Source: Cyanophora paradoxa CCMP329 (taxonomy: Eukaryota > Plantae > Glaucophyta). From it: a stretch of 64,000 bases of DNA. Both the position numbers and the translations under genes were made by a program. Each line of letters opens with the position of its first letter. Position 1 is the first letter of the stretch. Of the stretch, positions 32,026 to 60,584 are shown piece by piece. The notes under the pieces were generated by a model, which saw only the letters and a list, made by a program, of their open reading frames with translations, was not told where the DNA came from and searched no databases. The DNA lies in NCBI GenBank assembly GCA_004431415.1, contig QPMI01000437.1, positions 310,001-374,000 on the forward strand, read 5' to 3'.

Positions 32026-32308
32026 ACACATAGTAAAATGCGGAGTTTTAACCCTCGGCTTATCTTAATTGATTTTGTTGATATATCTCGTATATTCTAT
32101 TTCAATCAATCGATAATCTGTGTATATCTTATCGAATATTCAATTATTTCGATTATTTTGTATTCTTTTCGATATTTTATCGTAAATTTCTCTTATTTTC
32201 CGATTAGTCTTACTGAGTCAATCGATAATCTGTATATATTTCCGAATAATATAACTGAATCTCAATTAGATCTTGCCTCTGGTTAAAACTCCGCATTTTA
32301 CTATGTGT
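32026..32308. other. Terminal fold-back hairpin (28-bp perfect stem, 227-nt T-rich partly paired loop)
   Basis: 32026-32053 ACACATAGTAAAATGCGGAGTTTTAACC is the exact reverse complement of 32281-32308. Confidence 0.9.
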
Positions 32309-33072
32309 GATTGGTCTAAAAGGTAATTGATTTAATCGATATTATATTCATGTACTTTCTCGATTAAATTTAATTAAATTTAATTCATTTAATCGGAAAT
32401 ATATCGCTAAACTCGATTAAGATCCATAAATGATTCATTTGTTTATATTAATAAATCGATCTCTTATTGAATTCAATCGTAATTATACATGAAACTTATA
32501 TGATTTTATCATTGTTTTGTTGAGTCTAAGGGGGGACCCTTAGAAAATTGGGTGTCACAGGTGTCACAGGTGTCACAGGTCAATCCCAAGGAAAGTCCTA
32601 GTGAGAAATTGATTTTTAAAATCCACGGGATAGACCTGTGACACCTGTGACACATACCATATTCAGTAAGGACCTCATATATTGTGAAAATCTCAGTGTT
32701 AGTTGGTGTTAAATCTTTCAGGCAGCATTTATTTGTCAGGCATTAAATCTATCGATTTTCATAAAGTATTTTATTTTGGCTAAGTCATTGTTTGGATTAA
32801 CAATGAAATTTCAATTTTATAAAAGTTTTCTAAAAAGGTGCCTGACAATGCCTGACATACTATATAAGTGCCTGACAACTATATTATAGTGCCTGACAAA
32901 CCATATATGGTAATACTATATGATATCTTCTACTTTCTCAGTGTTAGTTGGTGTAGTTGACTCAAAAAATGCATTTATACTCTGATTCATTGTTATTTCC
33001 TGTGAAATTTGAGTCAACTCAACCCACTTAGTCAACCCTTGCATTGAATTCGTAACAAAATCCATATACTAT
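32026..33072 (+). repeat. Left terminal inverted repeat (1,047 bp; imperfect extension to ~33157)
   Basis: Reverse complement of 59538-60584. I noticed only two mismatches (near 32867-32869). Begins 5'-ACACATAGTAAAATGCGGAG. Confidence 0.95.
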
Positions 33073-33430
33073 TACTACTTTTACGATTAATATGAGTCAA
33101 CCTTGAGTCCACTTTAATATAAATATTATATAATAGGGGGAATCAAGGGGAGATGCTTATAAACATATGAATTATTGAGCCTATGATACTTACATCGTCA
33201 GGCAGGCCTCGTTAAGAGGATTCCGAATCTGTTTTTGGTTTTGTCACATGATGAGTTGGTGAAGAGATACATGCATTTTAGTGTTTTGTATGTGGTTTAA
33301 TGATATGATGTCATAATGCATGGGTTTTCGTCAACAGTTAAATGAACAGTTAAGTGGACACCGTTTCACGATAAACGAGTAGACACTGCCTACTCCCAAC
33401 AGGTGTCCACTTAACTGTTCACTTAATTGT
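32525..33430. promoter_or_regulatory. Cluster of iteron-like inverted/direct repeat modules (putative origin or protein-binding region)
   Basis: Hairpin TCTAAGGG-GGGA-CCCTTAGA; GGTGTCACA x3 / TGTGACAC x2; TCAGGCA x2 / TGCCTGACA x4; AGTTGACTCAAA / TTTGAGTCAACT; 20-bp IR TGAACAGTTAAGTGGACACC. The repeats are seen directly; the function is inferred. Confidence 0.55.
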
Positions 33431-33910
33431 TCGCAATTTGCTTCATTGTCTTTCAATAGCTTTCCCGCATATCTTGTTTTCAATTGTTGTTGCAGTACAC
33501 TATTACAATAGTTGTCTCGTTAACTGTTCACTTATCTGTTCGCTGCGGAAAAAAGACGATGACGGACGTGTTATGTTACGAAATGATGTCATAATGACGA
33601 TGCATATGTATATGATATATATGACACACCATCGAACTCGGGAGATCATGACGATCACGGCGATATATATATGTTATGTGTTTATGATACATCATTATTA
33701 CATCATTATGATGCATCATTCCGAAATCTCGAAAAATCGATAATCGGCATCTTCAAACGCTTGTATCTCATCACCAGATTATCAAATCGCAACGTTCTGC
33801 ATATCGCTGTGAAGCGCTTGAAAAGATCTACAAGACAATGTGTATATCATATGCATATATGTATATCAGTCATACATATATTTGGAAAAAACGAGTTTTC
33901 GGCTAGCAAA

Positions 33911-35295
33911 CTAGCTAGTTTTGGTCCTCTCTCTTAGTGTTCTTTGAGGTTTAGGGGCTGTATATGACTCCTTAGTAGTCTGAAAGTCATTATACCATCT
34001 CTGGCTATTCACTTCTGAAAGTTTCTGTGTTCCTGCTATAGTGAGCTTTTTGAGTTCCCTGTTAACTTTCCCAGCCTTCTCCTTCCTAGCCTCTATCAAA
34101 GGCTTAACTGGGACTTCATTAGCAGCTTCTATGCCTTCTCTCCTTATAGCAGCATCAACCCTAGCTTCCTCTTTAGCTTGCTCTAAGGCATCCACTGTAG
34201 GGGCTTCCAGATACTCAACTGCATTCACAGGCAACAGCTCATGGAATGCAAACCTGTTATCTATGATCTCTCCAGTGGGACTCTTTAGCTTAAACTTAAA
34301 GCCTTCTCTACTATCAACAGTGTAAACCATCCTAGACCAATTGTTACCCTGTTTAGCAAAGGGGTTCTTCTCAACTTTCACTCTAACAAACATGCCAGGC
34401 TGCATGGTATCAAGGTAAGCTATTGATTTCTTGAATCTTTCATCTTCTAATCCCACTATATACCTATAATGATCCTCTGTAGTTTCACCTGGCTTCATCT
34501 TAGTAGCTGAGTGGACTGTATTATTGTAATTATACTCAATATCACCTAACACATCAAAGAATCTAGCTGTGTTATTAGCTATGCAGTAGTTTGTGATCAG
34601 TCTCTTAATCTGCTTGTTAAAGGCTTCAATTCGACCTTGGCTTCTGTGGTCAGCAGTTCCACTCACTTGGTGTTCTATGAATTTACTAGATAAATACTCC
34701 TGGAATATTCGATTTTGGAACTCACTTCCAGCATCTGATTGAACCTTTACTATTGGTCTTGCCACTCTCATCTCAAGCTGTTTAAATGCAGCCAATGTAG
34801 TGAGAGCTGATTTATCTCTTATAGGTATAATATACCCAGTTCTCAGTGTTGATTCCATTGCAGTCATAAATGTATCATAGCCATTGTTTTGTTTCTTATA
34901 AGCTGGGAAAAAGAGCAAATCAATCACATAGGTATCAAGGGGTTGCCTAATTGGGACCATGGGATCTCTCTTCCTAGATATAGCAGGTGCATTGATCTGA
35001 ACAACTTCTTGTTTTTATAGAACTCTTGCAACTGCTTATAGGATTCATCTGGTAACTCAGCCCTCATAGCTTGAAGCCCTTTATAACCAGTTCTCACATC
35101 ATAGAATCTCTTGGCAATCTTGTTGGTTTCTTTCACTGCAATAGCAACTGGGATCTCTACTGGGACAAGCTCTTTCATTTCAGACTTTTTGACAATTCGA
35201 GATTCCCCCTTTTCCTCCTTTGGAACTGTGATAGGCAGTAGGTTACCTTGTAGTTGCTCAGTGGTTCTCCTAACTATTCTTCCAGTTGCTGGCAT
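33911..35295 (-). CDS. Retroviral-type (rve, DDE) integrase; one -1 frameshift at ~35014
   Basis: Catalytic triad YVIDL / QSDAGSEF / GRIEAFNK, YNNTVHSATKMKP, and a Polinton-type C-terminal PGMFVRV…F.K…WS segment. ORF 34924-35295 joins 33911-34960 if one A is added to TATAAAAAC. Confidence 0.92.
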
Positions 35296-35298
35296 CTC

Positions 35299-38200
35299 TT
35301 AATTAAAAGGAACAGAATTAATACCATCTGGTAAGATGTATCTCTTTGCATCAAAGCAGTTTAGGGCAACCCTTCTACTCACAGTGTCTATTATTGTGTG
35401 ATCTGCCCTTCTTTTCTGCTTTGCAGTCACAGTCTTGCTGATACCTGCAAATAAACACTGTTTAAAATCATTAAATTGGAGTTCCTCAGTTGAAGTCCCA
35501 GAGAGCTTACTCCTCTCAATCTCAGCTGTTCTGAAACTGTAAACTTTGGCTCTCAGACCCACATACTCCAGTATAGCAGAACCTGGCATCTCATTTTTGT
35601 ATTTACCTGGGGTCATTCTTGAATCACCTCCAAGGTCCAAGGCATAAGATATATTCTCTATATCTTTTTGTAAGGTCTTAGATTCGATATATAGACAGAA
35701 GGAATCAGTATCATGGAATAGTAACTTTGCTTTTGTCCATTGGGACCTTACAGTATCATAGAAGAACTGGTAATTATGCAGTTTGGCTGCATCCAAAACA
35801 TAAGCCCCAATTGCAACAGGCTTATCTAGTTTCACATGCTTTGTGTAAAACTCAAAGGCAACTGCTTTTTCGTTTATGGGCTTGTTGATTTCACCAATGG
35901 AGAGGCTGCATATTTCATAAATAGTTTCTCACTGTTTGCAATCTTAACCACAGATCTACCTCTACATGATTCAATGCATTTCCCATAGATTGAATTATTC
36001 ATGAGCTTATAGAAATCAGCCTCAAATTTATTCACTGCTTTCCTTCTCATATCAGTGTTCAGCTCAATGTAGGGTTTCATTACAGGAGCCACAGTAAATG
36101 ATAGGACCCTGTGAACCTTCTTTAGTTTCATCCCTTTGTCCAACAGATACTGTAGAAGAGGCTCAGAAATCACATAGTTGGTCACAGAACCAAAGGTTGC
36201 AGTTAGCTTAGGGGTCTTATCAAGCTCTTCTCCTGAGAGATCTAATAGGCTCTTTTGATATTGTGATAATTCGGCATATTCTACTATTTTCTTGTTAATA
36301 ATTAGGGGGAAATCACTGTGGTCTAGATATAGCCTAATTGGGTAATCCAGATCAACTTCCAGGAAACTGGATCTGTTATCTTGTGGGTTGAATTCGGTCT
36401 CCCATCTAAAATCACCAACTGGAATTGGCTGACTCAAACAGTAGCCATACAAGTTGTTAGCATCAAACAGCATTATATGGGAGTTCTCACCATCAGCCTC
36501 AGCATACCTACAAGGCATTGTTGCAAAGCCACCCCTGATTCCCCTCTCAACAAATTCGTATTGCTCTACATCACTTATAAGCTCTATTTTTGCCTTGGTG
36601 GTCCTAAGCATAGCATCCCAAGATAACCCAGGTGCAGATACATAATGAACTGGGTCCAATCCATATACTGAGTGTGAAAGCCTTCTGAAAGCCTGGAATT
36701 TGCTCATTAACTCATCTACATCAGCAGCCCCAAAGTCCATAAAATTACTTGCATCAATGAACTTGTAAAGACCCCATTGCAATGAAAGGTATTGATCAAA
36801 GTTTTTCGAAAGGATTTCGATTCGCTTTTTATCACCCATGCCTGCTATTTTTCTGAAAATGAATGTCCCACAGTCATCCATTTGGTCAACAACCACTGCT
36901 ACTTTTGTTTGCTTTGAGATTCTCCTATGAAGATTGCAGTTTCTGCATGCAGGAGCAATGTAATTACCTGTGTGGTGATCATGATCCCTGCATTTGAAGT
37001 TTTCCTTGGTGAACCTCTCACTGCAAAGGTAACAGTGTTTGGTAGCTCTGTAAATTGCTTTCTGCTCATCTGTGAGTTCATTCATGGGAATATTGGTAAA
37101 CAGGAAGTCAATTAGCTCTCTTGCTTTGGATTCCAAGCATTCAAACAGACCTCCCATTGGATCCTGACCCTCAAATCGAAAATCTTGAACATCTTCCCCA
37201 GTGACTATTCTTATGTTGACTGCTGAGACTTCCCTCTTGGATTTCGATGCATCTATGGGGATGCTTCTATGTTCAATCTTGCAGTAAACCACAACAGGAA
37301 GCCAAACAGTTTTCCTTAGGTTTTTCAGTCCAAACTCTATGGTGGTCTCAGGTTTTGGTGTGATTCCCTTTGAGAGTCTCCAATCAATGCATCTATTTGA
37401 ATCCACATGAGCAGTTAGTTTAGCCTCAGACCTGAATCGAGATAAGCATGTATCACAGTAGTGTAACTTTTGATCCTTGGTTTTATCAAGGGCAACTCTG
37501 AGAAGTCTTGAAAGGGACATGATTGTAATATAGTGACCATTCCCTTCATCATCATGAATGAGCATGAGATTAATCTTTTGCTTTCTGCCTGGGTTGCTGG
37601 ATTGATGTAGGGGATATATAACATCTCGATCCATTCCAAATATGTTTATGCTGATGCCTGCATTTTGAGATTCGAATTTATCAATGATTTCAGCATCACA
37701 GGGAACAGGGAATGGGATGTTATCGAAATTGAGAGCCAGAGGATTGTATGTAGTTGGTGAGTATTTCCATTTGCGATATTGTGTTAGCTCACTTCTCTTG
37801 TGGAATTCACATCTTTCCTATGGATCCATGCCAAAACTGCATTTTCGAAGCAAGAATCATCAATATTTCGAATATTCACTGTGGCTCTCTTGGCTGCAAT
37901 TGAATCAGGTGTTTTAACATAGCAACCACCAGTTGGGGCATAACTCATAATAGCAACTCTGAGCATTTCGATTCTCTCCAATCGATAGCTATCAACAACA
38001 TTCATCTGCTCCTGACACATTTGGGCTGCTTTATTCAGCTCAGTTCGAATATTTCTCGATTTGGTTAATACAAAATAATCGCTGTAAATGTATTTCGATA
38101 TCCAAACCTGTGGATTGCTGACTTTTACGAACTTGCAGATAAACGATAAGCGAACTTTGATTGCCCTGAATTGATCTAGACTGTCTCTTAAACGTTTTGG

Positions 38201-38542
38201 TAGAGAGGTTGCAATTCTATCTAAATATTCAATCACATCAACAACAACTTCCCTTCTGGCTCTGTAAGTGAGCCAGCGATATAATTCATTCATTGCTGTA
38301 CCATCTTCTGCCTCTGGTTCTATTTGCCTCAGGCGATCGAGTTCATCAAGAGTTTCAACTTTATCATAGAGGTTATTGGCTTTTCTGGTTAATTTCGCTA
38401 AAGTGGGTCTGCCCCTTGAAATAAATCCGATTTCCCGGTCATATTCAGCCTCTGTAATTTCATGGGCTGCATACAGTGTTCCCAGTAATCCCATGAGTTC
38501 CCATTTCTTCTCTCTAATGAGTCTGTTGCTAATTCGGGGCAT
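35299..38542 (-). CDS. polB: Protein-primed family B DNA polymerase (Polinton-type), split by two -1 frameshifts (~37800, ~35882)
   Basis: Motif A LFDANNLYG, motif B KLMNNSIYGK, motif C HDTDS, GLRAKVY, YGLDPVHYVSAPGLSWDAML, an EndoVII-like Zn insert CYLC…DHDHHTG…ACRNCN, and N-terminal NIRNIDDSCF. The three ORFs are collinear. Confidence 0.92.
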
Positions 38543-38576
38543 AGTTCCTAACTTGTTCCTACTCTCAACAAATATT

Positions 38577-38894
38577 TTATTCTGAGATGTTCTGAACGCG
38601 ATTTTCTAGTTTCTTTCGCAATTTGGCTTTGTAATGCATTGGATTATGTGATCCATTTTTTGTCCATACATTTGGGTTTTTGTGATACTGTTTAAGGGCG
38701 TTAATTAAGTTTTTCTCTGTTTGTAATCGCAAACAATCAATATCTTTGGAGGAAAGCTGTGACATTTGATACCCATCACATTTGCTTTGGCATTTGATGA
38801 TTTTGTCTATAAGAGCTGGTATATCCTTCAAATCATCTTTATCGAAATGTTTGTTCTCAATCATTGAACTCATTCTGGTAGTCCAGCTTGTCAT
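38577..38894 (-). CDS. Viral hypothetical protein (105 aa)
   Basis: ATG-started ORF packed in tandem upstream of pPolB. No recognisable motif. Confidence 0.55.
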   Translation of the reverse strand: MTSWTTRMSSMIENKHFDKDDLKDIPALIDKIIKCQSKCDGYQMSQLSSKDIDCLRLQTEKNLINALKQYHKNPNVWTKNGSHNPMHYKAKLRKKLENRVQNISE

Positions 38895-38947
38895 TGTTGG
38901 TACTACTACTTATTATTATAAGAATATTATAATGTATTTGTTTTAAA

Positions 38948-39092
38948 TCGTCAGGCAGACTTCGATTGTCAGGCAGCTGATTCAGCCAACATTAAGAAAC
39001 TCTGTCACTTTTTCAAGTCAGTGTTTGAGAAAACTAATGAAACCATAAACTTATAAAAGTTAAATAGAAAGGTGCCTGACAGTGCCTGACAG
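38948..39092 (+). repeat. Degenerate internal copy of the TIR TGCCTGACA module (left-TIR orientation)
   Basis: GTCAGGCAG x2 … ~100 bp AT-rich … AAAGGTGCCTGACAGTGCCTGACA, matching 32717-32857. Confidence 0.8.
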
Positions 39093-39096
39093 CTTT

Positions 39097-41490
39097 TTAA
39101 CAATCATCATCATCCTCATCAATAAACTCTGTTGTATTTTCCGAAATCAGTTTTACACACTTGTAACCTCTATCATATACTTTTGAAGTTGCCTTTCTCA
39201 CTGCATATTTGTCATATTTGGCTCCCAACATCTCCATTACTCTCTTAACCCTGCTTGCAGACATATTGAGTTTCAAAGCTTTTAACTCCTCATCTACAGT
39301 TTTGCTTGACAGAGAATCAGAAGGATTTCCTGTAAATTCAAATCTGCTTTTTAGTATTTGAATTTCATCACCTGCATCCTCTCTGAAAGCAGCAGTATCA
39401 TTTGCCACCTTGCCACATATCTGGACTTTGTGGGATTTGTATGCTTGGAATACTGACCATTGGAAAGCATGAATGATTTCAGGGCGTTTAAGCAGATCAC
39501 TTTTAATATCTTCAGAAGCCAATCTATAGCATGGGAGCTTCATTTCATCCATTGTTTTCTGATCCACAAACTTGTGGGGATGCTGAAAGAAAACAAGAGT
39601 CTCAAGTGTATCAGATGGAGAAACAGGGGGCATATCATTCATGATCATCCAGAGCCTACTTTGGAGTCTTATATTTTGCTCATTTCCATATAGGATTCGA
39701 ATGCATTGAATATCACCACCAGATTCTTTCTTTTTAATCATATTGCCATTTATCTTGATACTTGGATTCGAAACATCAAACTTCATCTCTTGGGTAAATG
39801 TTAAACGGCGAAATTCACATGGTTTCATCCATTTTAGCTTTTTAGCCTCATCAGAATCTGAATGTTTGTCCATCAGGAAAGATTCTCCTCCAATAGTGTT
39901 TACATAACCACTCCCCCAAGTGTTCTCATTAAGATTGACATAAACTCCTTTTCCACAATTGCGCTCACCTGATGATAGTCCCCATTGTTTATCCTCTACT
40001 TTGCCTGCCATTGCTCTTGCTGTAAATTCGAGAGCAGTATTAATTGCATCTGCTCCAAACACAGGTTCAAGTATGTTTTCGTAGAGGATTTTTATATGCT
40101 CTTCTGACGGCTTGACTACATATCCTTGATCATCTACAAGTAAATCTCTTTCAATTCGAGTAGTGGAATATACGTTTTGACACTCTGCCCAAGGAGTAAG
40201 CTTTTTGGTTTCGAAATCATACACACCATTTTTATAACACAATTTTCCAAGAGATGAAGACCATAGGACATTATTCACAAACTCACTATCATTTGGCAGA
40301 AGAGCTTTTGTGGCTTTGATAACTTTTTGAGCGCCTGTTATATTTGCGGTATACTCTGTTAGACCTGTTAGACCCTCATGATATATCTTTGCTTGGAGGC
40401 ATTTTTTTAGGAACACATTTTCCACTTGATTGGCTTCCTCAGTCCAAAGGTTCTCATCTGTTTTGACAAATATACGACCATTGGATTGCTTGACATCATT
40501 TTTGATATCTTCAGCAAACAGAGTAGCAGCCTCATAGTCTGTAGAGCAAATTCGAAAATCGTTTGCTTTCAGAGAAGCTTCATCTGGAAGCTCGAAACCC
40601 TGATCCATAGGCTTAACAACTAAGCCTAATTTGTATCCTGTGGACTGCTGGATATAGTTCTCTGCATCTTTGAGAATATCAGTAAGTTTTTCCAGTGATA
40701 GATTAGGTGACTTTTCAATCATGCAGCCATCAAATACAAGAACACCAACAGTGAGTTTGATGGAGGTTAGATACTCACACAGAGCCATAAGAGCAATATT
40801 CTCAATCTGACAAAGAACCATGTTAACAGTAGAACCTAACACATTGTAGCCCTTCTTTCGCTTGCAAATAGCAAGGAAGTTGGTATTTTCTTTTAATTCA
40901 GCAATAGAAGCATGAATACCACCAATTTCTTGTTTAACCTTTTTAAAAGCCATTTCTTTGTGTAAATCGGGACACTCAATGCCTCCTCCTCCGTTAATCA
41001 CAGATAAGAAGGCGCACTTAATTTCTTCACGAGTAAGATCACACTTTTTGCTTAAATCACTAACGATTTTATCTCGATTGGCAACAAACTCAGCAAGGAA
41101 ATCACAGTTTATGTCATTTTTTTGGCAATACTGGACGAGTATCGATGGATGAGCATTTTTCATATCAATATCATAATACAAATCCCTTGCTAAGGTGTGT
41201 CTAAATTCCCGAGGCATACTCTGCATGCTTGCTTTTTTGTTTTTGATGTGTGAGAGAGTAGTGAAATATCTTCCAGTATGGTGTTTGCATTGATAGTATT
41301 TAACTTGAATGGTCCCATTTGAATGCAAGTCCTTCATATATTTCTTGAGGAGAGTCAAAGTAGCAGTAGAATCCACATCTGGTCTATAACTCAAACCCTC
41401 GAAATTATCGATTAAATACTTAAGAGTAGGGCGAGATACTTTTTCAATAAGAGTGATATCGAGATTGTTGGGTTTCTTTGAGCTAAACAT
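39097..41490 (-). CDS. TVpol-type (PolA-like) primase-polymerase fused to an SF3 (D5-like) helicase, 797 aa
   Basis: N-terminal GRYF…SMQSMPREFR, YYDIDMKNAHP, KCAFLSVINGG, LVFDGCMI. C-terminal NGVYDF, Walker A GERNCGKG, Walker B LTFTQE, sensor-1 WMIMND. Confidence 0.85.
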   Translation of the reverse strand: MFSSKKPNNLDITLIEKVSRPTLKYLIDNFEGLSYRPDVDSTATLTLLKKYMKDLHSNGTIQVKYYQCKHHTGRYFTTLSHIKNKKASMQSMPREFRHTLARDLYYDIDMKNAHPSILVQYCQKNDINCDFLAEFVANRDKIVSDLSKKCDLTREEIKCAFLSVINGGGGIECPDLHKEMAFKKVKQEIGGIHASIAELKENTNFLAICKRKKGYNVLGSTVNMVLCQIENIALMALCEYLTSIKLTVGVLVFDGCMIEKSPNLSLEKLTDILKDAENYIQQSTGYKLGLVVKPMDQGFELPDEASLKANDFRICSTDYEAATLFAEDIKNDVKQSNGRIFVKTDENLWTEEANQVENVFLKKCLQAKIYHEGLTGLTEYTANITGAQKVIKATKALLPNDSEFVNNVLWSSSLGKLCYKNGVYDFETKKLTPWAECQNVYSTTRIERDLLVDDQGYVVKPSEEHIKILYENILEPVFGADAINTALEFTARAMAGKVEDKQWGLSSGERNCGKGVYVNLNENTWGSGYVNTIGGESFLMDKHSDSDEAKKLKWMKPCEFRRLTFTQEMKFDVSNPSIKINGNMIKKKESGGDIQCIRILYGNEQNIRLQSRLWMIMNDMPPVSPSDTLETLVFFQHPHKFVDQKTMDEMKLPCYRLASEDIKSDLLKRPEIIHAFQWSVFQAYKSHKVQICGKVANDTAAFREDAGDEIQILKSRFEFTGNPSDSLSSKTVDEELKALKLNMSASRVKRVMEMLGAKYDKYAVRKATSKVYDRGYKCVKLISENTTEFIDEDDDDC

Positions 41491-41664
41491 TTTTCTTGAA
41501 CGTTTCTATATTAAGCAGATAAAATATTTTATCTGAAAATCCTTGTCATTTTTTGTTGCCAAACCTTTAAGTCCTTTTGGGTTGGCTTCGAATTATATCG
41601 ATTATTGGTAGTAGTGTATCAGTTTTTTTATGAATTCCCCATACAAAAATAATGAACCGGCATT

Positions 41665-41895
41665 TCAGTATTTCCGAGGACGACCTACAGGTCGACCTTC
41701 TGGGAAATTTGGGTCAATTGTGAGTTGCTTTTTATAGTAGTAATAGGCTAATGCCCTTTTGCGGCGAATTTCACGATATTCCTCATCCTCTTCATATCTT
41801 TTATTATAATAAATTTGGTTTGAGATCTTTTTCTTCATTGCAGAAGAGATCTTTTCAAAACTTTTGCTATCAGTTACAGTTTGATCAGTATCCAT
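41665..41895 (-). CDS. Small basic putative DNA-binding protein with an AT-hook
   Basis: KRYEEDEEYRE…ALAYYY.KK…GRPVGRPRKY. Paralogue of 42660-42905. Confidence 0.65.
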   Translation of the reverse strand: MDTDQTVTDSKSFEKISSAMKKKISNQIYYNKRYEEDEEYREIRRKRALAYYYYKKQLTIDPNFPEGRPVGRPRKY

Positions 41896-42019
41896 TTGGG
41901 TATCTCTTAACTATAACCGAGAAAAATGTTTTGTCAGATTTCAATATGCTTGATTTCCTTAAGTAGTTTATGATTCGTCATTTTTTGGTAACAGAGATAA
42001 TTCCTATACTGTTACCATA

Positions 42020-42212: not shown

Positions 42213-42282
42213 TTTCATCAACAAAAAATGATTGTGTAAACTGACTTAAAGATTTATCAGATATATTAATAAGAAAACAACA

Positions 42283-42582: not shown

Positions 42583-42659
42583 ACAATAAAGCCAATTCCT
42601 TTGTATATATTTTTATAGCTGCCTCAGTAGCATACTGAGACCGCTTTTTCTCAATTATC

Positions 42660-49186: not shown

Positions 49187-50731
49187 AGGCACCTGTAAAG
49201 TCAACTCTCATTGTGGGAGCATTCACATACACAAGGGGATAAATGCGAATATATCTTATTCTCAGAGAATAACCTATGTAAAAAGCATCCTTGATGCTGA
49301 GAGGGAACCCACTCAATAGAGCCACATCACCAGAGTTGTGAGCATTGTTAATGTTCTCACAGACATATATTTTGTTTTGCCCATCTGATCGAATAAAAGA
49401 CCAGTTGATCCCATCAGTGGATGTTGCCACATTGAAAGTCTTAATAAAAGCATTGGTGTCCCCTGATCCATAGGCAATCACAGAGGAGAGTTCAAAAGTA
49501 TATGGAAAAGCAACTTGAAGGTATTCAGTGGGGGTTTCCCATATCTGCTCAGGAGCATAGGCTCCAGCTTCCCAGCCAAATGCTGAAGGTCTAGCCATGA
49601 AAGGCTCTTTACCAGTCACAGAGGATGAGGCAGTGAAGGCATCATCTGCAAGCTGATACCAATTAGCATCTAAAGGAGGTGACTCTGTGAGAGTGGATGA
49701 GATGTAAGCCTTTGTAGGGTTCTTTAGTTCATAGTTTGCTACTAGTAGGCTGCAAAGCTTATTAATCATATCATTGTTTGCTGCAATGTATGTTTCAGTG
49801 AATGCTAGCATATCTGGGATTTTAGAAGTGTCATCCAGAGAGCTTACTATATGATTTGGAAGAGGGACTGATAGCCTATAGTATCTCCCATAATCCTGAT
49901 CATAGTTGTATGGTAACAACTCCTCCATCTTATCAAGGGCAGAAAGCTCACTTGCAGCCATGAGCATGTTAATCAATGGGCTTCCATCTGTTGAGGCAAT
50001 CCATGAGAGAATTCCCCAGCTGTTTACAGTCTCATAAGCATAACCCACATAATCAGACTCTAAATGTGGGTCCACCTCTCCACAAGAGATACTTATTACT
50101 ATAATGTCATCATCATCACTGTAAATCTTCTTTGCATGGCTGTAACCACACACACTGGGATTATTGTTTCCCGAAATGGCACCATCAATGAGACAGACAT
50201 ATACCCCCCGATTGAAATCAACAATGCTTACAGGAGAGAAATATGTAGGAGCAGCAGAGGTAGCCCTAGCAGCAATCTTACAAGGCAGAAAGTTGTAATT
50301 GTTATCATTTGTGATAAATATTGGTTTCATATTCTGAGTATCAAAGGATGTGATCACAATGTCCTTTAGGGAATCCTGTATTAGTGATTCCCCAGTAACT
50401 GAATTGATTGCAGTCTCCAAGGGTCCCACATCATACTTTGTATTAAATAGGGCATTTTCGATTATATTTCGAGGATTTGCGAAAATCAAGGGCAGTTGGG
50501 CTAGGTAAATGTTGTGTAAATCGTTTGCTGTGAGTTTAGGTTCACCTGGTTTATCAGGATGCCTTATATTCAAACCTATTGCAATGATCCCACCAGTGGA
50601 AGTTCCACTCACAAGATCCACAAGATCGATTATTCTCCTGCCAGTTCGATTTTCGATTTCTTTTAGCAGCCTGGTTATGATAATGCCCCTTGCACCCCGC
50701 CAGAAAGACTTAAAACGACCTTGAGAGGCAT
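49176..50731 (-). CDS. Patatin-like phospholipase fused to an F5/8 type C (discoidin) domain; -1 frameshift at ~50696
   Basis: MPLKVVLSLSGGGARG (restored by one extra G), GTSTG, ARATSAAPTYF, IDGA. C-terminal FTASS…W…EYLQV…F.VATSTDGINW…RYIRIYP…MRVDFTG. Confidence 0.88.
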
Positions 50732-50774
50732 CTTTTACTTATCAGGAATTTTATAAATCCATATAGTAAAAGCC

Positions 50775-53700
50775 ATGAGCTTCAATTACCCACCAAATCT
50801 AGAAACCATTCAAGATGATAATGCAAGCAGCACCAAGCATGTGAACTTTGATAATATTAAAGTAAAGGGTTCAGTTTCAATTGACCACAGCTCTGATAAT
50901 TCATCAAAGACTCAATCAAGGGAGCATGCTTTATCTGTGAATCAAACCGATCCAGATAAAGAGGAGGTCAGTGTTGCTTTTAGTTTGGGTAATGTGAAAG
51001 CAAACCAAGTGGCAGAGATCAAAGCAACAAGAAGGAGACCTAGGAAACTAAAAACCAGTGGCACCCATCCAGATATACCTTCCAGGTTCGATAGTGGTCG
51101 ATTGATTTTCAATGTTCAAGATGAGCAGGGCAAACAGAACACAGCTTTGCGAATTTACAATGAGGGCAGCACTGCAAAAGCTGAGGTCCCCAAGTATTGC
51201 AAGTGGGTCCCATTGCCAACACAAATCAGGTCTCCTACACAAATGATGTATACCCCAAGGATATTACATATGACTTTGCGAGGAATGAGCCTTTTGGGTT
51301 TTTTACTCCAAAAGATGTCCATCAAAAAAAGCCATCAATTACAATCAACAGTAGCCCCAGTCAACCAGTAGCAATCCATTTACACCCTGATTTAGTCGAA
51401 ATGGATAGGCACCTTTTGCCTTTGTATAGCAATGTGAAAGACCTTGGAATTCGAACCAGGCAATGGCGAAATATCCATGGCAGCAATGTGTATGCAAATG
51501 GAGAGAAGCTTGTAAGTGAGAAAACTCTAAGGGAAATCATTGAGCATTATGGTCCCAATGGACCTACTGTCCCATTCCCTATTCCATTTCCCAATGGACC
51601 ACCCGATTTAACACCAAAGAAGCAACCTGGAAGAGAATACACAGCAACTGAAGATGTAGCCTTTGGGCAGCATATTGTAAGTTGGGAGCAAGTTCGCAAT
51701 AAACCTATAATTGAACCAAGAAAGCAAATAGATGAGCAGTATTTACCTCCTGAAATCGATATATTAGAGCTTGAAGAATATCAATTCGTTCCAGATGAGG
51801 AAGAGTATTTACCAGATGGTTTTGACCCACAAGAGTATGAGTATGATCAATTTGACCCCAATGAGGAGGAGATACTACCAGATGGCTTAGATCCACAAGA
51901 GTTTGAGTATGAGCAGAACTATGAACCTGATGAGGAGTATTTGCCAGATGGGCATGATCCACCAGCTGTTGATTATGAGCAACCTTATGAACCCCATGAG
52001 GAATTACTACCAGATGGATTTCGACCTGAGATCTGGGAGTTCTTTCCTGATTATGAACAAATTAATAATAAACCTGCAAAGTATCCCCCAGAGGATCACA
52101 ATCATGATTGGGATGAGATCTTAGGCAAACCTCAAAAGTATCCACCAGAGGATCACAGGCATGATTGGGGTGATATTGATGGAATACCAGAAGAATTTCC
52201 ACCAAGCAAACATGAACATATTTGGGATGAGATTAATGACCAACCAGAGTTTGCAAAAGTGGAGCCTTTGGCAACCCTAGGGGTTTCTCTTTACCAGACT
52301 TGCAATGTCCCTGAAAGGATCTTTTTGAATGAACACTATGTACATGTGAATGGGACACTTGCGAATTCAGGTATGAGAGGACCACTTCATATTAGGACAT
52401 TACCAGGCTCTTTTGAAACCCCACCAGAACCAGGAGCAACCATACCAAATATCTTTGTGTCAAGCTACATGGAGGTTGACATACCCACAGATACTTTTAG
52501 AGTTCCAACAGACCCAGCAACCTACCAAAATTACAATGCAGCTATACAGGTTCATGTTGCAGATGTGAGCAGTCTGGATGGATCAAGACCAATGATAGTT
52601 TTCAGTCGAGATAAATACTCCTACATTCCCATAGTGGGAACTGCAAATGATAATTATGGAAGGGCAGAACTTGCATGGATAAAAACGAATTATGGTGGGG
52701 TTCTGGAATCCAATCAGAGGATGGCTGCAAAAAACATACACAACGAGAATATATCAAGAGTGGTCACAGAGGATTACCTTACTGCTGTAATACTTGTAAA
52801 TTTCGTAACTCTTGCTATGCTTGGAGATTATGTAACAAAACCTGAACTTGCAGATGAATTATCAAAATATCTTCCGCTTGTTGGTGGGACAATCACAGGA
52901 AATCTAAGAGTCAATAGTAATATTTACAGCAGCAATATTGAGACCAGCAATCTTAAAGTAATTGAAACTCTCACAATTGGTCCAAGTAATTTGCACACAC
53001 TGAATCAGATTATCAGGGAATATTATCCCATCACATCATCTTATGATCCCGCCTTAAATATTTCAAATTGCATTTTTGCATGGAAAGCCTCAGGAACAGA
53101 TGGACAATCAGCCACAGGAACAACCGTTTATAGTCGAATATCATCAATCATACCATCTCTTCCTGTCGTTGGAAATCCCTATTACTCCACCGGGATAAAC
53201 AACCAAATGAGTTTGACAATTGGAGCAGATGCCGGTTTTGCTTTGTATTCGTATGTATCAAGAACTATTGATTACTCAAATGGATTAACCTTTTTCTTTG
53301 TGGGAAGATATGGAAGAGCTACAAGTGGGAATGATGTCCATTTTAGATGTGACAAAACAACAACTCCAAATAGACGTATTTCCTATGGAGCAAATACTTG
53401 GGCATCACTTGGTATCAGTTCATTTATAATCAATGCCGTAGGTCAAACAAAACCTTCGTTCAATGTTTCAACATTTGCAAATCAATGGTATTATTCCGAC
53501 CAAACAATAACATCAGACAGCTACACAGTAGGATTTAATGGAATTGATATAGGAACGATCACAGGAACAAATTATTTACCTGATTCGGTAGTTAATTTAT
53601 TTGGAATAGGTTACCTCAATGGTGGTAGCATTTGTGAAATCATTGTTTTCAACAGAGCATTAACGGCAGAAGAAAAACAGAACGTCAGGTATTACATCCA

Positions 53701-56500
53701 GCAAATGTATGGTTTCCCTATAACTCAACCTCTTTCAACATCTATTGCGTTAAAGATCACATCACCTGAAACAATAATAGATAATCTCACTGTTATTAGT
53801 AAAGCAAACCTTCCAAACTATCCTACAAATGATGTGGTTCAAAATTGGATACGAAACCATACACACACCAAAGGTCAAATAACAGATTTCGCACACAAGC
53901 ATTTATGGGAGGATATCACGAATCCACCATTAACCTTTCCGCCTGATATTCACACTCATGATTATACCCAGATTACCAACTGCAATCACAGACACCCATG
54001 GAGCGAAATTGATCAACAACCAGTATTTGCACAATTGAATGCAATCGGAAATATTTTTAATGGAGTTACACTTTACCAATCCAGTAATACAGCTGAAAGG
54101 TTATATTTGAATGATCATTATGTCAGCCTCAATGGGACTTTTACAGGTCAAACAGGCACCCCCATGGTGGGAACTCTTGCAGTAAGATTACCCAGGGATC
54201 CTATTGTAAATGGAGCCTATGATGGAGATTTTAATGTTAGTGTGACTGATACTTTCCCCAGTATCTATGTAACGAATTATCACCCAGGAGAAACAGGACA
54301 AGAAGAGAATTTTTCAGCAGCAATTCAAGTAAATGTAACAGATCAAAGCGCATATGATGGAGCAAGACCTAAAATAGTTTTCACAAGGGAGAAAGTTGTA
54401 AACTACCTTCCTGTTGCGGGACAACCCACAGATGATCACGGAAAATGTGAGATGGCGTGGATAAAAACGTTATCAGGTGGCGCCTTAGAAGTCAATCAGA
54501 GAATGGCGGCGAAAAACTTACACAATACCACCCTTTCCGGTGTTGTTACAGATGATTATTTAGAAAACAAAGATTATGTTACAAATACAGAATTACAATT
54601 AGCTGTTACAGATTTTGTTACAGATACCGATTTAACGGCGGCACTTGCTAATTATCTACCTCTAACAGGTGGAACTGTAACAGGTACTGTGAATGCTACC
54701 ACTTTACAAATTGGCGGAACCACAATACCAAAAGGTTACGATTTCGACCAATTAGATGTGGTCTCATCAGATAGAAGCCCGAATAATTGGACTGTTACAG
54801 GATGGATACCAAGAACCGGACAAACAGGATGTTATACAACACCAGCAAATGATGAAGATTGCAGCGGTTGTTGGATGAGGTGGGTTGTTCCGACAGGTAT
54901 GAAATCGTTTTATATTCAGCACATGCCTTGGGGTAATTGTAGATATTTCGATATCTACGGGCAAACTGTTAATGGATATCAACATTTCTTAAAGCGTGTA
55001 AATGCTTATCAAGTAATTCAGGAAGTTAATCAAGGTGGAACACACAATTGTATTTTGTTTGTCTCTATTAATTGCGAATTCTACAAATATATTTATGTTC
55101 AAGGTCGAAAAGGTCGCATTCATCTTACGGGGGTTTTCGGTTGGAGTAGACAAAGAGCAATGGATAATGAGGTTGGTATGATCTCTTGGGATAATATTTT
55201 TAGTAAACCATCATTTTATTCAGCCGCAGACCTTCCACAAACAGCGACATGGCCAACAAATACATGGTTAAAATCAACCGACACTGTTCCGCGAATTTGG
55301 TTTGGAAATGGTGATTGCACATATATTCGAGGTTATGGAAATAGTGGTGGTGTTTCAATTGAATTCAGAGACTCAGCAGATGGAGCAATATTAAAGTCTT
55401 ATAACAATGGTAACTTTTGGGTGAAAAACACTATTACAGCGACCACTATTAATGCTACAACAGATCTTCAAATAAATGGTAATGCTGTTCCAAAGTTTCA
55501 CACAGCAGATAAAACAAAAGGAGGTATTGAATTTAATAGATGTTCTTATGGCGATTGGACATGGGCGTGGAGTTCAGCATGGGATCCACATTATAATTAT
55601 GGTTCATATGTTCATAATAATCAAACGGATGATCAAACTTCTACCGCTTGGATTGACTTCGATATTCCAGAAGGATATCACACAGGAACAGCGTTTTTAA
55701 CTTATCTACCTTGGACTAACTCACGAATTTTTGAAATTTGGGGACTGAATCGACAAGGGAATGAAGTTTTTATTACATCAGTGAATAGTTATCAACCATA
55801 CGCCACATCGCCTGATGGTAACCACAGTGGTGTAAATAATGTTCCGATACATCTTGGTAATCGATTTCTCACAATTCGAATTAGACCAAAGATTGGAAGA
55901 GTTCACATTATGGGTATAAGTTACATGAAAATATGGGTAGGAAATAGTTATGGTGGTCACACCGGCTATATTCATTGGAATAATGTTTATAGTAAACCAA
56001 ATATCTTAACAGGAACTGTGGGGACTTGGTTTAATTCCAGTGATGGATATAATCGAATTCATTTCGGTAACAATGATTCTACATATTTGAAAGGAAGAGG
56101 AACTTATCCAATAAGATTTCGAAATGAATTAGATTCTAATATTTGTTGGATCGATCATGACGGGCGGATGTGGATAAACAATTATTTAACACAAGGAAGT
56201 GACAGAAGATACAAAACCGATATTAAAAAGATAACCGGCGCTCTTTCAGCAATTGAAAAATTGGAAGGAGTGAGTTTTAAACGAATTGGGAGTGAAAAAG
56301 ACGGAACAAAATTAGGTTTAATTGCGCAAGATGTAGAAAAGGTAATACCAGAAATTGTAAGTGTCACAAAAGAAGATGGTTACCTTTCTCTCGAATACAC
56401 GGGTTTAATTCCAGTTCTCATTGAAGCTGTGAAGGAGTTGTCCCAAAAATGCAAAGATCTACAGGATCAAATAGACCAAATTAAAAATGTCAAAGTATAA
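50775..56500 (+). CDS. Giant fibre/spike protein (about 1,900 aa) with phage tail-fibre repeats and a C-terminal peptidase S74 chaperone; -1 frameshift at ~51190
   Basis: HxHxWxxIxxKP repeats, YLPLxGGTxTG x2, a LamG-like segment (EIIVFNRALT), and C-terminal SDRRYKTDI…GLIAQDVEKVIPEIV…Y..LIPVLIEAVKEL. ORF 50775-51371 joins 51197-56500 with one extra C. Confidence 0.85.
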
Positions 56501-56503
56501 TAA

Positions 56504-56809
56504 ATGGCGACCTATCCTCTTGGTGGAACCACCTATTCTACTGAGCCTGTTGCGCTTTCTTTTGATACAATCACCCTTGTAAACGCATTACAAACAGTTG
56601 AAAAAACGATTCAGCAAACTAACAAGCTCTCACCAGTTGTCAATGAGTATAAAAACCTCTTGGTTAATGTCCTTGCTCAAGCTGCATATGGTGACCCTGT
56701 TGCTAAATACACTGAGTGTGATAACAACATTAAAGCAATGACATCCAACCTGCAAGTTCTTTCAACTGTTTACCAATCCCTTGGATCGAATTTAATCACT
56801 TTGGCTTGA
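56504..56809 (+). CDS. Viral hypothetical protein (101 aa)
   Basis: ATG 3 nt after the fibre stop codon. Predicted helical. Confidence 0.65.
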   Translation: MATYPLGGTTYSTEPVALSFDTITLVNALQTVEKTIQQTNKLSPVVNEYKNLLVNVLAQAAYGDPVAKYTECDNNIKAMTSNLQVLSTVYQSLGSNLITLA

Positions 56810-56848: not shown

Positions 56849-57724
56849 ATGGGTGAATATAATCGAGTTCAACTGCCTATATATTCCCTTGGATCCCCTG
56901 CAATGCATTTTCGCCAGCATGAAGTAAATGATGAGGTTCGTGGTTTAGAATCCACAGAGAGACCCAATTCCAATGGCAACTCCTTTGATAAAAATTCGAT
57001 TATTCGAGTTAAAGAGCTGAGAGCTGATAAGAATTCTGGTGTGGTTAAAACAACTCGACTTCTTGTCACAAATGCTAACTTTTTCCAGCCTACCAATGGA
57101 GGTCCTGATGCTTACAGTGTTGATCTGAAAGCCCTTGATTTCGATAAGAATTCTGCTGCTGTAACTGTGAGATCAGGAGGAGCATTTATTGGTGGTGGCT
57201 GCAGAGTTTCAGGTCAGCTATCTTCATCTGTTTCCTACAATGATGTCCCAGATACTCTCGAACAAAATGTGGAGAACCCACAACGAATTCGTTTCTACAC
57301 ACCTGTTGCACAGCAACCTTTTTTGCATTTCTATGTTGCATCCTCTGTAACTCTTGAGAATTCGGAATTAGTTTCCATTACAGGAACTGATCGAGTAAGA
57401 AGAAATATTCCTCTTCCCACTGCAATGCTTTCCATGTGTAGAGCCAATAATAATCAACCAGGACACAACTACTTATTCTTTGTTCAAGCTTCGAACCATT
57501 TTGGCAGAGGATATTGTGTTTATAACAATTTGACATTTACCTATGATCTGTTTGTCACTGAGGTTGGAGTATACAATACTATGATTATGGGACTGAGAAC
57601 AGATATAGCAGCTGTATCAGCACTTCGTGGGGTAAATGTTGCTGATATATTCACAACAGGATTTTACCAAGAATTAGATGTAATTGATGACCCAACCCAT
57701 AAAAGATATATCCCTTTAATGTAA
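56849..57724 (+). CDS. Putative virion structural protein, paralogue A
   Basis: Shares ELR.DKN.G.VKTT.LLVTNANF and SGGA.IG.G.RV.G with the next gene. ATG at 56849. Confidence 0.7.
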   Translation: MGEYNRVQLPIYSLGSPAMHFRQHEVNDEVRGLESTERPNSNGNSFDKNSIIRVKELRADKNSGVVKTTRLLVTNANFFQPTNGGPDAYSVDLKALDFDKNSAAVTVRSGGAFIGGGCRVSGQLSSSVSYNDVPDTLEQNVENPQRIRFYTPVAQQPFLHFYVASSVTLENSELVSITGTDRVRRNIPLPTAMLSMCRANNNQPGHNYLFFVQASNHFGRGYCVYNNLTFTYDLFVTEVGVYNTMIMGLRTDIAAVSALRGVNVADIFTTGFYQELDVIDDPTHKRYIPLM

Positions 57725-57725
57725 A

Positions 57726-58558
57726 ATGGCTGAGCAACCCCACTTGAACGAATTATTACACCTCAACTATCATTAGCTGCCCCAGCAAACCATGTTTTAC
57801 AGCATGCTACTTTTGATGATGTAGAGGGTCTCCAATCAACAGAGGTCCAACCTACAATGAACACCTTTGGTTCCACCCATAAACTGAGATTACAGGAACT
57901 CAGATGTGATAAAAATAATGGAATAGTTAAGACAACTAAGCTACTTGTTACCAATGCAAACTTTTCTGCTCATTATGGAGACCCAGATAGCTATGGAGAT
58001 CCTCTTTCTACTTATTCTTTTGAATCTAGGTCGGGAGCTATTAACTGCAAATCGGGGGGAGCTTATATTGGTGATGGTCTTAGGGTTGGTGGGGCTGTTG
58101 GAGCGCCTCTATTTGTGAATGATCAACCCAATCCCATTGATCCCAACACAAGAATTCGAACCTATGTCCCCAGCATGAATGCCCCCTATATAATCAAGAT
58201 ATTCCCCATTGTTGTAAATGAACAAACAGCAGTAGTAGATTCTCTTGTTGAGATTGGTGACCACTACAAGGTAGTTGTGGATATTCCACCAGATGTTTAT
58301 GCTGTATGTCAAGTGGAGGGTGGAACTCCTAATTTTGCAGTTGTGATCACCCCATATGATAATTTCGGAATTGCTTATCATGGAGTCAATTTCGGTTTGG
58401 AAGACTATCAGTTTCTTGTGAGAGCCACCAAGTTTGGTATCTACAAGTGTGTGATGTTTGCAGAGAGAACCGATTTTATTGCAAAGCAGAATACCTATGC
58501 TGAATACTATGGGACAAATCGATATTTTCCCATTTTTGGGCAGGATACTGCTCCATAA
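57726..58558 (+). CDS. Putative virion structural protein, paralogue B; -1 frameshift at CCCC 57738-57741
   Basis: Adding one C gives MAEQPPLERIITPQLSLAAPANHVLQH…DDVEGLQSTE, which aligns with the paralogue A N-terminus (SLGSPAMHFRQH…DEVRGLESTE). Confidence 0.7.
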
Positions 58559-58580: not shown

Positions 58581-58853
58581 ATGGATAGTAAAACAAAAAA
58601 GTTTATTGATGCTGCTATGACAGTTCATGGTAAAGATAAATTCGATTACAGTGAGACACATTACATCAAAGCTCAAGAGAAAGTATCTGTGAGATGTTTG
58701 CAGTGTAATAAAGTGATCCTTACCTATCCCTTTAATCATGTGAAGGGATCAGGTTGTAGGGAATGCAACAAAAAGCATTCTCAGGCTTACAGGAAAAGGG
58801 CTACTTCATCAATCAAAGTAGAGTACAGGGATATTTGCATTAGGTTCGATTAG
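58581..58853 (+). CDS. Single Zn-ribbon (DUF723-like) domain protein, no nuclease domain
   Basis: FIDAAMTVHGKDKFDYSETHY…KVSVRCLQC…HVKGSGCREC, the same repeat unit as in 44790-45719. Confidence 0.7.
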   Translation: MDSKTKKFIDAAMTVHGKDKFDYSETHYIKAQEKVSVRCLQCNKVILTYPFNHVKGSGCRECNKKHSQAYRKRATSSIKVEYRDICIRFD

Positions 58854-58882
58854 GATTAATTAATTTTTCTAAGGTATTCTTA

Positions 58883-59281
58883 ATGGAGACTAAATACAGA
58901 GGCTTTCATGTAATGCTTGATTACAAGGCTAAAACAGCTATAGCAACAGGTTATGAGCATGTTAGCTTCCTAGGTAATTGGATTATGGGAACCCTTGAAC
59001 AAGCAGTATTGAGACAAGGTATTAGGATTGTTCATAAGCATTGTGAGATATTTGATGGCAAACTATCACCTCCTGGTTTTGCATTGGTTCTGCTATTAGA
59101 TGAAAGCCATTGCACAGCTCATTGTTATTCCAATGAAGGCATGTTAGCAATTGATATATTCAGTTGTGGTAAAGAAGCTCAGCATAAAACACAAGCAGTT
59201 GCAGATGAGATCGATAAAACAATGAATTTCCTCACATTTGAGAAGACTGAGAGACATAAACATGATAGATTCCCGTTTTGA
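58883..59281 (+). CDS. speD: S-adenosylmethionine decarboxylase proenzyme homologue (short, prokaryotic-type, pyruvoyl-dependent)
   Basis: G.HVMLDY N-terminus, PPGFALVLLLDESHCTAHCY..EG..AIDIFSCG with an intact E-S-H autocleavage site. Confidence 0.88.
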   Translation: METKYRGFHVMLDYKAKTAIATGYEHVSFLGNWIMGTLEQAVLRQGIRIVHKHCEIFDGKLSPPGFALVLLLDESHCTAHCYSNEGMLAIDIFSCGKEAQHKTQAVADEIDKTMNFLTFEKTERHKHDRFPF

Positions 59282-59537
59282 TAGGTTTATATAATGATAA
59301 TCAGGGTAATTTACCTTTTTTATTACAAAAGCTTTCTACAATGATTATTTTCCGGATTCCGGTCATTCTTTACGATAGAAATTCTACTGTATGATGTAGC
59401 CGAAATATGAATGCACCCTACATTAAGCAATGTCAAATAATTAGAATAATGTTCGATTTCCTTACACTAAAACCTCAGCATCTGCCCTAGATTCCCCCTA
59501 TAATTAAAGTGGAATCAAGGTTGACTCATATTAATCG

Positions 59538-60584
59538 ATAGTATATGGATTTTGTTACGAATTCAATGCAAGGGTTGACTAAGTGGGTTGAGTTGACTCA
59601 AATTTCACAGGAAATAACAATGAATCAGAGTATAAATGCATTTTTTGAGTCAACTACACCAACTAACACTGAGAAAGTAGAAGATATCATATAGTATTAC
59701 CATATATGGTTTGTCAGGCACTATAATATAGTTGTCAGGCAGTAATATAGTATGTCAGGCATTGTCAGGCACCTTTTTAGAAAACTTTTATAAAATTGAA
59801 ATTTCATTGTTAATCCAAACAATGACTTAGCCAAAATAAAATACTTTATGAAAATCGATAGATTTAATGCCTGACAAATAAATGCTGCCTGAAAGATTTA
59901 ACACCAACTAACACTGAGATTTTCACAATATATGAGGTCCTTACTGAATATGGTATGTGTCACAGGTGTCACAGGTCTATCCCGTGGATTTTAAAAATCA
60001 ATTTCTCACTAGGACTTTCCTTGGGATTGACCTGTGACACCTGTGACACCTGTGACACCCAATTTTCTAAGGGTCCCCCCTTAGACTCAACAAAACAATG
60101 ATAAAATCATATAAGTTTCATGTATAATTACGATTGAATTCAATAAGAGATCGATTTATTAATATAAACAAATGAATCATTTATGGATCTTAATCGAGTT
60201 TAGCGATATATTTCCGATTAAATGAATTAAATTTAATTAAATTTAATCGAGAAAGTACATGAATATAATATCGATTAAATCAATTACCTTTTAGACCAAT
60301 CACACATAGTAAAATGCGGAGTTTTAACCAGAGGCAAGATCTAATTGAGATTCAGTTATATTATTCGGAAATATATACAGATTATCGATTGACTCAGTAA
60401 GACTAATCGGAAAATAAGAGAAATTTACGATAAAATATCGAAAAGAATACAAAATAATCGAAATAATTGAATATTCGATAAGATATACACAGATTATCGA
60501 TTGATTGAAATAGAATATACGAGATATATCAACAAAATCAATTAAGATAAGCCGAGGGTTAAAACTCCGCATTTTACTATGTGT
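59538..60584 (-). repeat. Right terminal inverted repeat (1,047 bp; imperfect extension to ~59477)
   Basis: Reverse complement of 32026-33072. Includes the same hairpin (stems 60302-60329 and 60557-60584). Confidence 0.95.

Follow-up and report, generated by a model that had tools for sequence, protein, structure and literature searches.

The subject of this analysis is a 28,559-bp element inserted in the genome of the glaucophyte alga Cyanophora paradoxa CCMP329. It lies within a 64,000-nucleotide stretch of contig QPMI01000437.1 (assembly GCA_004431415.1, positions 310,001 to 374,000 of the forward strand), here called the window, whose numbering is used throughout. The element spans 32026-60584, has the termini ACAC...GTGT, and is bounded by terminal inverted repeats (TIRs) of 1,047 nt each at 32026-33072 (+ strand) and 59538-60584 (- strand), which differ by two mismatches and no gap (99.8% identity). 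The palindromic hexamer TTGCAA flanks both ends as a target-site duplication (32020-32025 and 60585-60590), and the GC content of 38% contrasts with 62% and 60% in the flanks. Both junctions are crossed with no differences by contigs from public runs dated 2012 (X1), 2024 (X3) and 2019 (X6), one of which may be the window's own source, and the depth of the junction contigs (17-128) equals that of the flanks. Because these contigs pass from flank into TIR unbroken on the flank side in all three runs, an empty allele is not evident. The element splits an exon of a host gene for a Cys-rich protein, the reading frame of which resumes across the TTGCAA duplication. The 28.6-kb element is a real insertion in an algal chromosome and, given its near-identical TIRs, likely a recent one; its ends, repeats, duplication and size are as a preliminary description of the locus had given them. 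Contamination or a false join was rejected on the strength of the junction contigs and the continuity of the host frame.

The interrupted host gene occupies 31780-32025 and 60585-61520 (- strand) and has weak NCD3G and ephrin-receptor-like matches; its frame reaches the duplication on the right, resumes from the duplication on the left and then enters a GT-AG intron. The TIRs contain two kinds of repeat module, GTGTCACAG and TGTCAGGCA. The outer 283 nt of each TIR (32026-32308 and 60302-60584) closes with an inverted copy of the terminus, 47 nt long at 81% identity with the outer 27 nt identical, and may represent a mini-element or a hairpin-capable unit.

Inward of the left TIR lie, both on the - strand, an rve (DDE) integrase (33911-35295) and a DNA polymerase of family B that is protein-primed (pPolB; 35299-38542), in the same order as in the related loci L081-L084. 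The integrase has the catalytic D, D and E, a Pfam match (E 1.6e-4) that falls below the curated cut-off, and 27% identity to its L083 counterpart over 302 aa; a break at 35011 splits its N-terminal part from its core. The polymerase, read in three frames as assembled (breaks at 35877-80 and 37801), matches PF03175 (E 7.5e-14) and is 31-38% identical to its counterparts in L081-L084. It comprises a predicted terminal-protein and vOTU part, an HNH-like insert, an eroded exonuclease (sites near 37286 and 36887, gap near 36735) and polymerase motifs A, B and C, of which A and B are kept in an alignment with four relatives and C lies in the third piece. The N-terminus retains a Cys and a His matching the predicted vOTU protease, a match of motif and not of fold, such a protease having been described by Krupovic 2024 (PMC11161782).

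The exonuclease is the part that departs from the relatives. In the same four-relative alignment Exo I reads YCKIE instead of YADFE, Exo II reads DQMDDCG instead of HNLKGYD, and about 105 residues before Exo III are gone from the element's protein. For comparison, 35 pPolB open reading frames (ORFs) were taken from 102 loci, each with sufficient sequence upstream and carrying motif A as well as the HNH motif in a single frame; the remaining loci were partial, split or missed by the search patterns. By pattern, Exo II is retained in 35 of these 35 and Exo I in 32, and the spacing is 273-310 residues, as against 174 in the element. By these alignments the polymerase has lost Exo I, Exo II and the block of about 105 residues. 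The changes are too many to be read errors, or decay in a copy whose TIRs are 99.8% identical; since sibling contigs matching at at least 90% also cover the exonuclease region at core depth, the loss is likely common to the sibling copies. The pPolB of mavirus likewise has an exonuclease remnant only, together with a separate superfamily 3 (SF3) helicase, and exonuclease loss has been proposed to accompany helicase gain, the two compensating each other (Krupovic 2024, PMC11161782). A literature search returned no paper on exonuclease loss in glaucophyte elements.

A helicase does adjoin the polymerase gene. It is fused to what we take, from its motifs, to be PolA (TVpol), and the PolA-SF3 fusion (39097-41490, - strand) is an open frame of 797 aa in a low-copy segment. 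The protein has 93 relatives, keeps its motifs in alignment and has a PHROG primase match (E 4e-9); the TVpol profile had no match among PDB sequences. Its closest relatives, 30-36% identical, sit in unrelated viruses, including the Sputnik-type-capsid virophage L016 and the 234-kb contig L001. Long single contigs over the gene have 3.7-7.6 times the flank depth. Sibling copies diverge from the window at 38563 and at 42586, where they continue with other sequence, and none of the run contigs joins these two points. Within those limits the sub-terminal TGTCAGGCA module recurs on either side of the helicase gene in opposite orientations, at 38950-39091 as in the left TIR and at 42002-42210 as in the right TIR (140 nt at 90% identity). 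The segment beside pPolB is likely a slot with exchangeable content. TVpol and pPolB occur together in none of 182 related loci, whose flanks reach up to 10 kb and are often short, so the pairing is uncommon among free relatives.

The morphogenetic genes begin beyond the slot. The major capsid protein (MCP; 45793-47160, - strand) was recognised from its ESM Atlas neighbours, fold matches and the homolog P0001. It scores 0.97-0.98 to Atlas clusters whose members carry Capsid_N in 12-83% of cases, with an Atlas recognition of 1802 that lies under the tool's mark of 2300. A poor model, from a three-row alignment (pLDDT 44; 35 from the single sequence), matches the PBCV-1 capsid (Foldseek E 3.4e-7; VIA Z 11.7 with a root-mean-square deviation of 5.1 over 144 aligned positions) as well as further capsids of the double-jelly-roll type. 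The best fold matches of this poor model are capsids of nucleocytoplasmic large DNA viruses (NCLDVs), no solved capsid of a Polinton-like virus (PLV) being among the matches listed. The MCP is on this modelling a predicted double-jelly-roll capsid protein. It has no Pfam, PHROG or PDB sequence match, and its profile matched none of the 182 related loci. The only relatives found are P0001 (59-61%; a Cyanophora paradoxa protein according to EukProt) and P0002 (35-36%; a Logan protein), one match having come from 5.8 billion sequences and two from 1.84 billion representatives; pattern scans of IMG/VR and of JGI metagenome contigs, which reach close relatives only, gave none. As these large-scale scans for MCP and ATPase need shared words or patterns, absence from them is weak evidence. 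P0001 is listed as an MCP in Table S2 of Bellas 2023 (PMC10120064), with HHpred 98.5% to an iridovirus MCP, and a visual count gives about 85% likeness across the first 79 residues for another MCP listed there. As judged by sequence, the capsid has no relative outside the C. paradoxa family in the searches made, and stands unplaced.

Two minor capsid (penton) candidates lie beside the MCP gene, at 47214-48224 (- strand; profile E 2.1e-5) and 48254-49186 (+ strand; profile E 6.4e-14), the next best match in these searches having E 0.07. The seed ORFs of the profile were picked by motif and position; the candidates have no PDB sequence match and no BLAST likeness to each other. An A32-like packaging ATPase with Walker A and B (43947-44729, - strand; PF04665 E 6.8e-11) is 84% identical to a sibling copy, motifs kept. 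The sequence scan gave one match to it and the close-relative pattern scans of IMG/VR none, while among related loci the best matches to its profile are weak (E 4e-14 and above).

With a double-jelly-roll MCP (low-confidence model), minor capsid proteins, an A32 ATPase and 28,559 bp bounded by TIRs, the element belongs to the Polinton-like viruses, broadly understood. It shares with Maverick-Polintons the pair pPolB and rve (both frame-broken as assembled) and the 6-bp duplication. Identity as a canonical Maverick was rejected for want of an adenain/Ulp1-like protease, which was found in none of the element's 583 stop-to-stop ORFs of at least 25 aa (best E 0.2) with a profile built from 28 viral ORFs that, as a control, matched 13 of 22 pPolB-bearing viral loci. 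Five matches came from a pattern scan for Cys proteases, none with an upstream His motif. Identity as a virophage was likewise rejected, the MCP having no Pfam match (that of L016 gives Sputnik_MCP at 3.8e-29) and no maturation cysteine protease being found. General Pfam and PHROG scans of the ORFs, in which no dedicated profiles were used, gave no match to HUH endonuclease, Mriya48 or VLTF2/3. The preliminary description had reported an endogenous PLV with rve, pPolB, a TVpol-helicase and two pentons, all of which are borne out; its 'no visible protease' holds for an adenain-like maturation protease only, since pPolB keeps the Cys and His of a predicted vOTU protease.

The same description had suggested that the element, with its chimeric gene set, may be of an undescribed lineage; on the gene set the record says otherwise. 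For 156 glaucophyte elements, Table S6 of Bulzu 2025 (PMC12220804) gives no protease, 85 rve, 49 PF03175, 139 A32, 89 lipases, 37 S74 and 66 AdoMetDC, with helicases comprising 40 D5_N, 34 PIF1, 15 PriCT_2 and 6 TVpol-S3H, all as totals per host group and not as gene pairings per element; only two of the 156 scored with that study's PLV MCP profiles. The MCP family appears in Bellas 2023 (PMC10120064), which assigns 272 of its 366 MCP matches in C. paradoxa to cluster 21 and the other 94 to cluster 29. Its Tables S2 and S4 call both clusters 'new' with no group name, and Table S4 gives neither a Mavpol nor a GKS1 label. Adintovirus-like proteins were noted in C. paradoxa contigs by Starrett 2021 (PMC8502044), and genomes with two replicases, the second bracketed by repeats, by Barth et al. 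2026 (bioRxiv 10.64898/2026.10.13.758929). In the literature searched, glaucophyte elements were found only in tables and passing remarks, with no dedicated description. The gene combination is thus already on record, and the capsid lineage carries no name in the published tables consulted. Because the existence and gene content of such elements are on record, the element alone is ordinary.

The element is one copy of a multi-copy family. In three core bins the summed contig depth, which is not the same as copy number, is 181-546 times that of the flank, single core contigs having 23-95 times; such core depth relative to flank would fit tens to hundreds of copies, in keeping with the published MCP count. 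In runs X17 and X18, 8 and 18 sibling contigs respectively lie over the TIR, rve, pPolB, patatin, the start of the fibre gene and 56.8-59.3 kb, with none over the host flanks; as the TIR is covered, they may derive from DNA, and they were not used as evidence. The ratio of observed to expected CpG is 0.42 for the element, 0.05 for rve, 0.27 for pPolB, 0.91 for the TIR and 1.2 for the flanks, the median for 84 viral loci being 0.78 and only three of them at or below 0.45. The high value in the TIRs relative to rve and pPolB may mean that the TIRs escape methylation or retain CpG sites. In C. paradoxa, CpG methylation covers repeats and virus-derived genes, and giant-virus insertions are present (Sarre 2025, PMC12344493). 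Methylation of CpG by the host likely keeps the integrated copies silent.

The preliminary description had also called the element probably intact, which as assembled it is not. Seven single-base breaks cut six genes: rve (35011), pPolB (35877-80 and 37801), patatin (50694), fibre (51187) and two paralogs (57695 and 57737). At all seven, among the indels listed, the window and sibling contigs are set apart by a gap of one base, always of the same sign. Six of the breaks lie in runs of at least three identical bases and the seventh in a run of two; five of those six fall in G/C runs, as against 387 G/C runs among 1,572 (p ~0.004). Gaps in short homopolymers of repeats are the usual pattern of long-read consensus error. 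False frameshifts have been documented as assembly artefacts in such elements (Bellas 2023, PMC10120064). The location at homopolymers and the lack of a counterpart in sibling contigs argue for assembly error, which we consider rather probable for the seven breaks. Were they instead real, the integrase, polymerase, lipase and fibre of this copy would be defective, and it would have been inserted with proteins supplied by siblings. The breaks do stand in the sequence, replication slippage likewise favours homopolymers, an exonuclease-less polymerase would be error-prone, and the flanks compared with contigs have no gaps in 1,050 and 1,440 nt. We nevertheless find real breaks rather unlikely in view of their uniform sign and concentration in short G/C runs, the lack of in-frame stops in MCP, ATPase, pentons and TVpol, the TIRs (2 of 1,047 nt different, no gap) and, at 37801, 51187 and 57737, the presence of the other form at all the depth of at least one run.

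Taken together, these results make it on balance probable that the element is a recent PLV insertion with an exonuclease-less pPolB that likely relies on the adjoining, exchangeable helicase, and that its breaks are likely assembly errors. Under such a scheme the rve integrase would insert the linear genome, and priming by pPolB at the TIR ends would use a terminal-protein domain freed by the vOTU protease. The template would be unwound by the helicase in the slot, PolA-SF3 here and a D5-type SF3 or PIF1-type one in other copies, as in the proposal for mavirus. The double-jelly-roll capsid, which would carry two pentons and a fibre, would then be filled with DNA by the A32 ATPase, and the patatin lipase may aid entry; there would be no adenain maturation step. 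Host CpG methylation would silence the integrated copies.

Several points weigh against this interpretation. No contig spans the whole element, and the exonuclease gap near 36735 is bridged by none of the contigs listed. Summed depth, as noted, does not count copies; the published totals do not pair genes within elements; and the 182 related loci hold no case of TVpol with pPolB. Moreover, contigs drop rare variants, the window's own substitutions being missing from them also in the low-copy segment, so that contigs cannot clear the element copy of its breaks.

Dependence of pPolB on the helicase has to be weighed against the possibility that the PolA-SF3 segment is a selfish, nested mobile replicase whose own ends are copies of the TIR sub-repeat and which plays no part in pPolB replication. 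We hold this to be possible, if doubtful, and the two readings are not exclusive. Its low copy number, the inverted sub-terminal modules around it and the occurrence of its relatives (30-36%) in viruses as unrelated as L016 and L001 are what such mobility would produce, and mobility of this kind has been proposed by Barth et al. 2026 (bioRxiv 10.64898/2026.10.13.758929). A plain empty site, however, would join 38563 to 42586, which no contig does, other copies holding other sequence there; the segment lacks an integrase, and likeness between its inner repeats is only 77%, over 56 nt.

Spread of the family only within the genome, as a self-synthesising transposon whose capsid module goes unused, seems unlikely to us. 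The strong CpG loss in the core genes suggests long residence under host methylation, and scans with close-relative patterns found the MCP without relatives in IMG/VR and JGI metagenomes, and the ATPase without relatives in IMG/VR. Yet the frames of MCP, both pentons and ATPase are open, the ATPase keeps its motifs at 84% identity to a sibling, and the middle parts of the fibre differ among copies, as is usual for receptor-binding parts. We find it quite improbable that assembly has pieced the inner genes together, as a mosaic, from several siblings. The copies are many and similar, and no piece spans the element, but both junctions are exact with one common duplication, a contig of run X6 (42200-42619) reaches 33 nt past the variable segment's right edge, and TVpol-S3H is present in 6 of the 156 published glaucophyte elements (Bulzu 2025, PMC12220804).

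The capsid is without a place in current frameworks. If the recent-insertion reading with helicase reliance is true, an axenically cultured alga holds a many-copy family whose exonuclease is eroded and whose single slot takes helicases of several types. The point of interest would be the replication module, which would allow the compensation of Krupovic 2024 and the replicase mobility of Barth et al. 2026 to be tested copy by copy. More tentatively, the family might be a glaucophyte-restricted lineage with an unplaced, possibly NCLDV-related capsid. Its pPolB would have lost proofreading independently of mavirus and of the pPolB-S1H viruses and become dependent on a helicase cassette exchanged via TIR-derived repeats. 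One genome, holding potentially active copies by the hundreds, would then capture a shift from pPolB to polymerase-helicase replication.

Among known systems, mavirus and the EMALEs (Virophaviricetes) offer a parallel in replication. They, like the element, are AT-rich inserts with TIRs in GC-rich protists. They also combine rve and a pPolB having an exonuclease remnant with an SF3 helicase, which is separate in mavirus (PMC11161782). Unlike mavirus, the element has no virophage-type MCP or maturation protease, its pPolB is of polinton type and carries an HNH insert, and its helicase is fused to PolA; by analogy, the element likely replicates as mavirus does. Maverick-Polintons and Gosseviruses (Polintoviricetes) share the pPolB-rve order, 31-38% identity (L081-L084), TIRs, the 6-bp duplication and a lipase, but the element differs from them in having no adenain-like protease, no MCP relative there and an eroded exonuclease. 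The endogenous PLVs already tabulated from C. paradoxa are of the same kinds, with rve, pPolB, A32, lipase, S74 fibre and AdoMetDC, no protease and few TVpol-S3H; the tables (Bellas 2023, Bulzu 2025) do not give the exonuclease loss, the repeat-bounded helicase slot or the TIR structure. The multi-replicase polisuviruses of Barth et al., among them the C. paradoxa example EVE_QPMI01_83, resemble the element in a second replicase (PolA or AEP) that is bracketed by repeats apart from the TIRs; it is read as a mobile passenger, and the exonuclease is not mentioned in the parts of the preprint consulted (bioRxiv 10.64898/2026.10.13.758929). The Zephyrvirus cluster of Nucleocytoviricota-like PLVs has genomes of 20-30 kb with an NCLDV-related capsid module, TVpol or pPolB, and a lipase; the main text of Bellas and Sommaruga 2026 reports no endogenous examples and no Cyanophora (bioRxiv 10.64898/2026.06.19.733378).

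Between the left TIR and the stop codon of the integrase, some 800 nt (33100-33900) have no assigned gene, and a sibling joint skips 286 nt there. The variable segment also encodes a 105-aa ORF with no family match (38577-38894, - strand) and a 76-aa basic protein with what is presumably an AT-hook-like motif (41665-41895, - strand), which is 43% identical over 53 aa to its paralog, an 81-aa basic protein with an AT-hook-like motif at 42660-42905 (- strand). One of these small paralogs thus lies within the segment and the other just outside it, and by sequence they are candidate binders of the TGTCAGGCA repeat. No family match was found for a 99-aa ORF (42283-42582, + strand), two ORFs of 90 and 244 aa (42889-43918, - strand) or a 101-aa ORF (56504-56809, + strand). 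A homing-type endonuclease with Zn-finger repeats (44790-45719, - strand; PHROG 559 E 5.7e-72) occupies another low-copy segment, at 1.5-2.4 times flank depth, and a 90-aa Zn-finger module akin to its N-terminus is found at 58581-58853 (+ strand). The patatin phospholipase (49176-50738, - strand; patatin E 1e-15) is fused to an F5/8 (discoidin) domain and is broken near its start, at 50694.

The large fibre-like protein (50775-56500, + strand) ends in a Peptidase_S74 chaperone (E 1.3e-15). The middle of its gene (52873-54040) is low-copy, at 2.2-4.5 times flank depth; this part and 54639-56339 are low-copy or divergent in siblings, with joints that skip 986 and 2,330 nt, a pattern of modular variation. 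Two tandem paralogous ORFs of no family, 34% identical, follow at 56849-58558 (+ strand), the ESM Atlas giving for the second (57734-58558) only leads scoring under 0.9, and an S-adenosylmethionine decarboxylase-like protein (58883-59281, + strand; AdoMetDC E 2.9e-11) completes the set. The IMG/VR virophage contig L016 (2590-5908) carries two tandem ORFs with identical initial residues, the first being the Sputnik-type MCP; the TVpol-SF3 of this contig is 31% alike to that in the window. Outside the element, at about 11600-14900 of the window (+ strand), lies a host gene with short GC-rich introns, which we take to resemble anoctamin/TMEM16.

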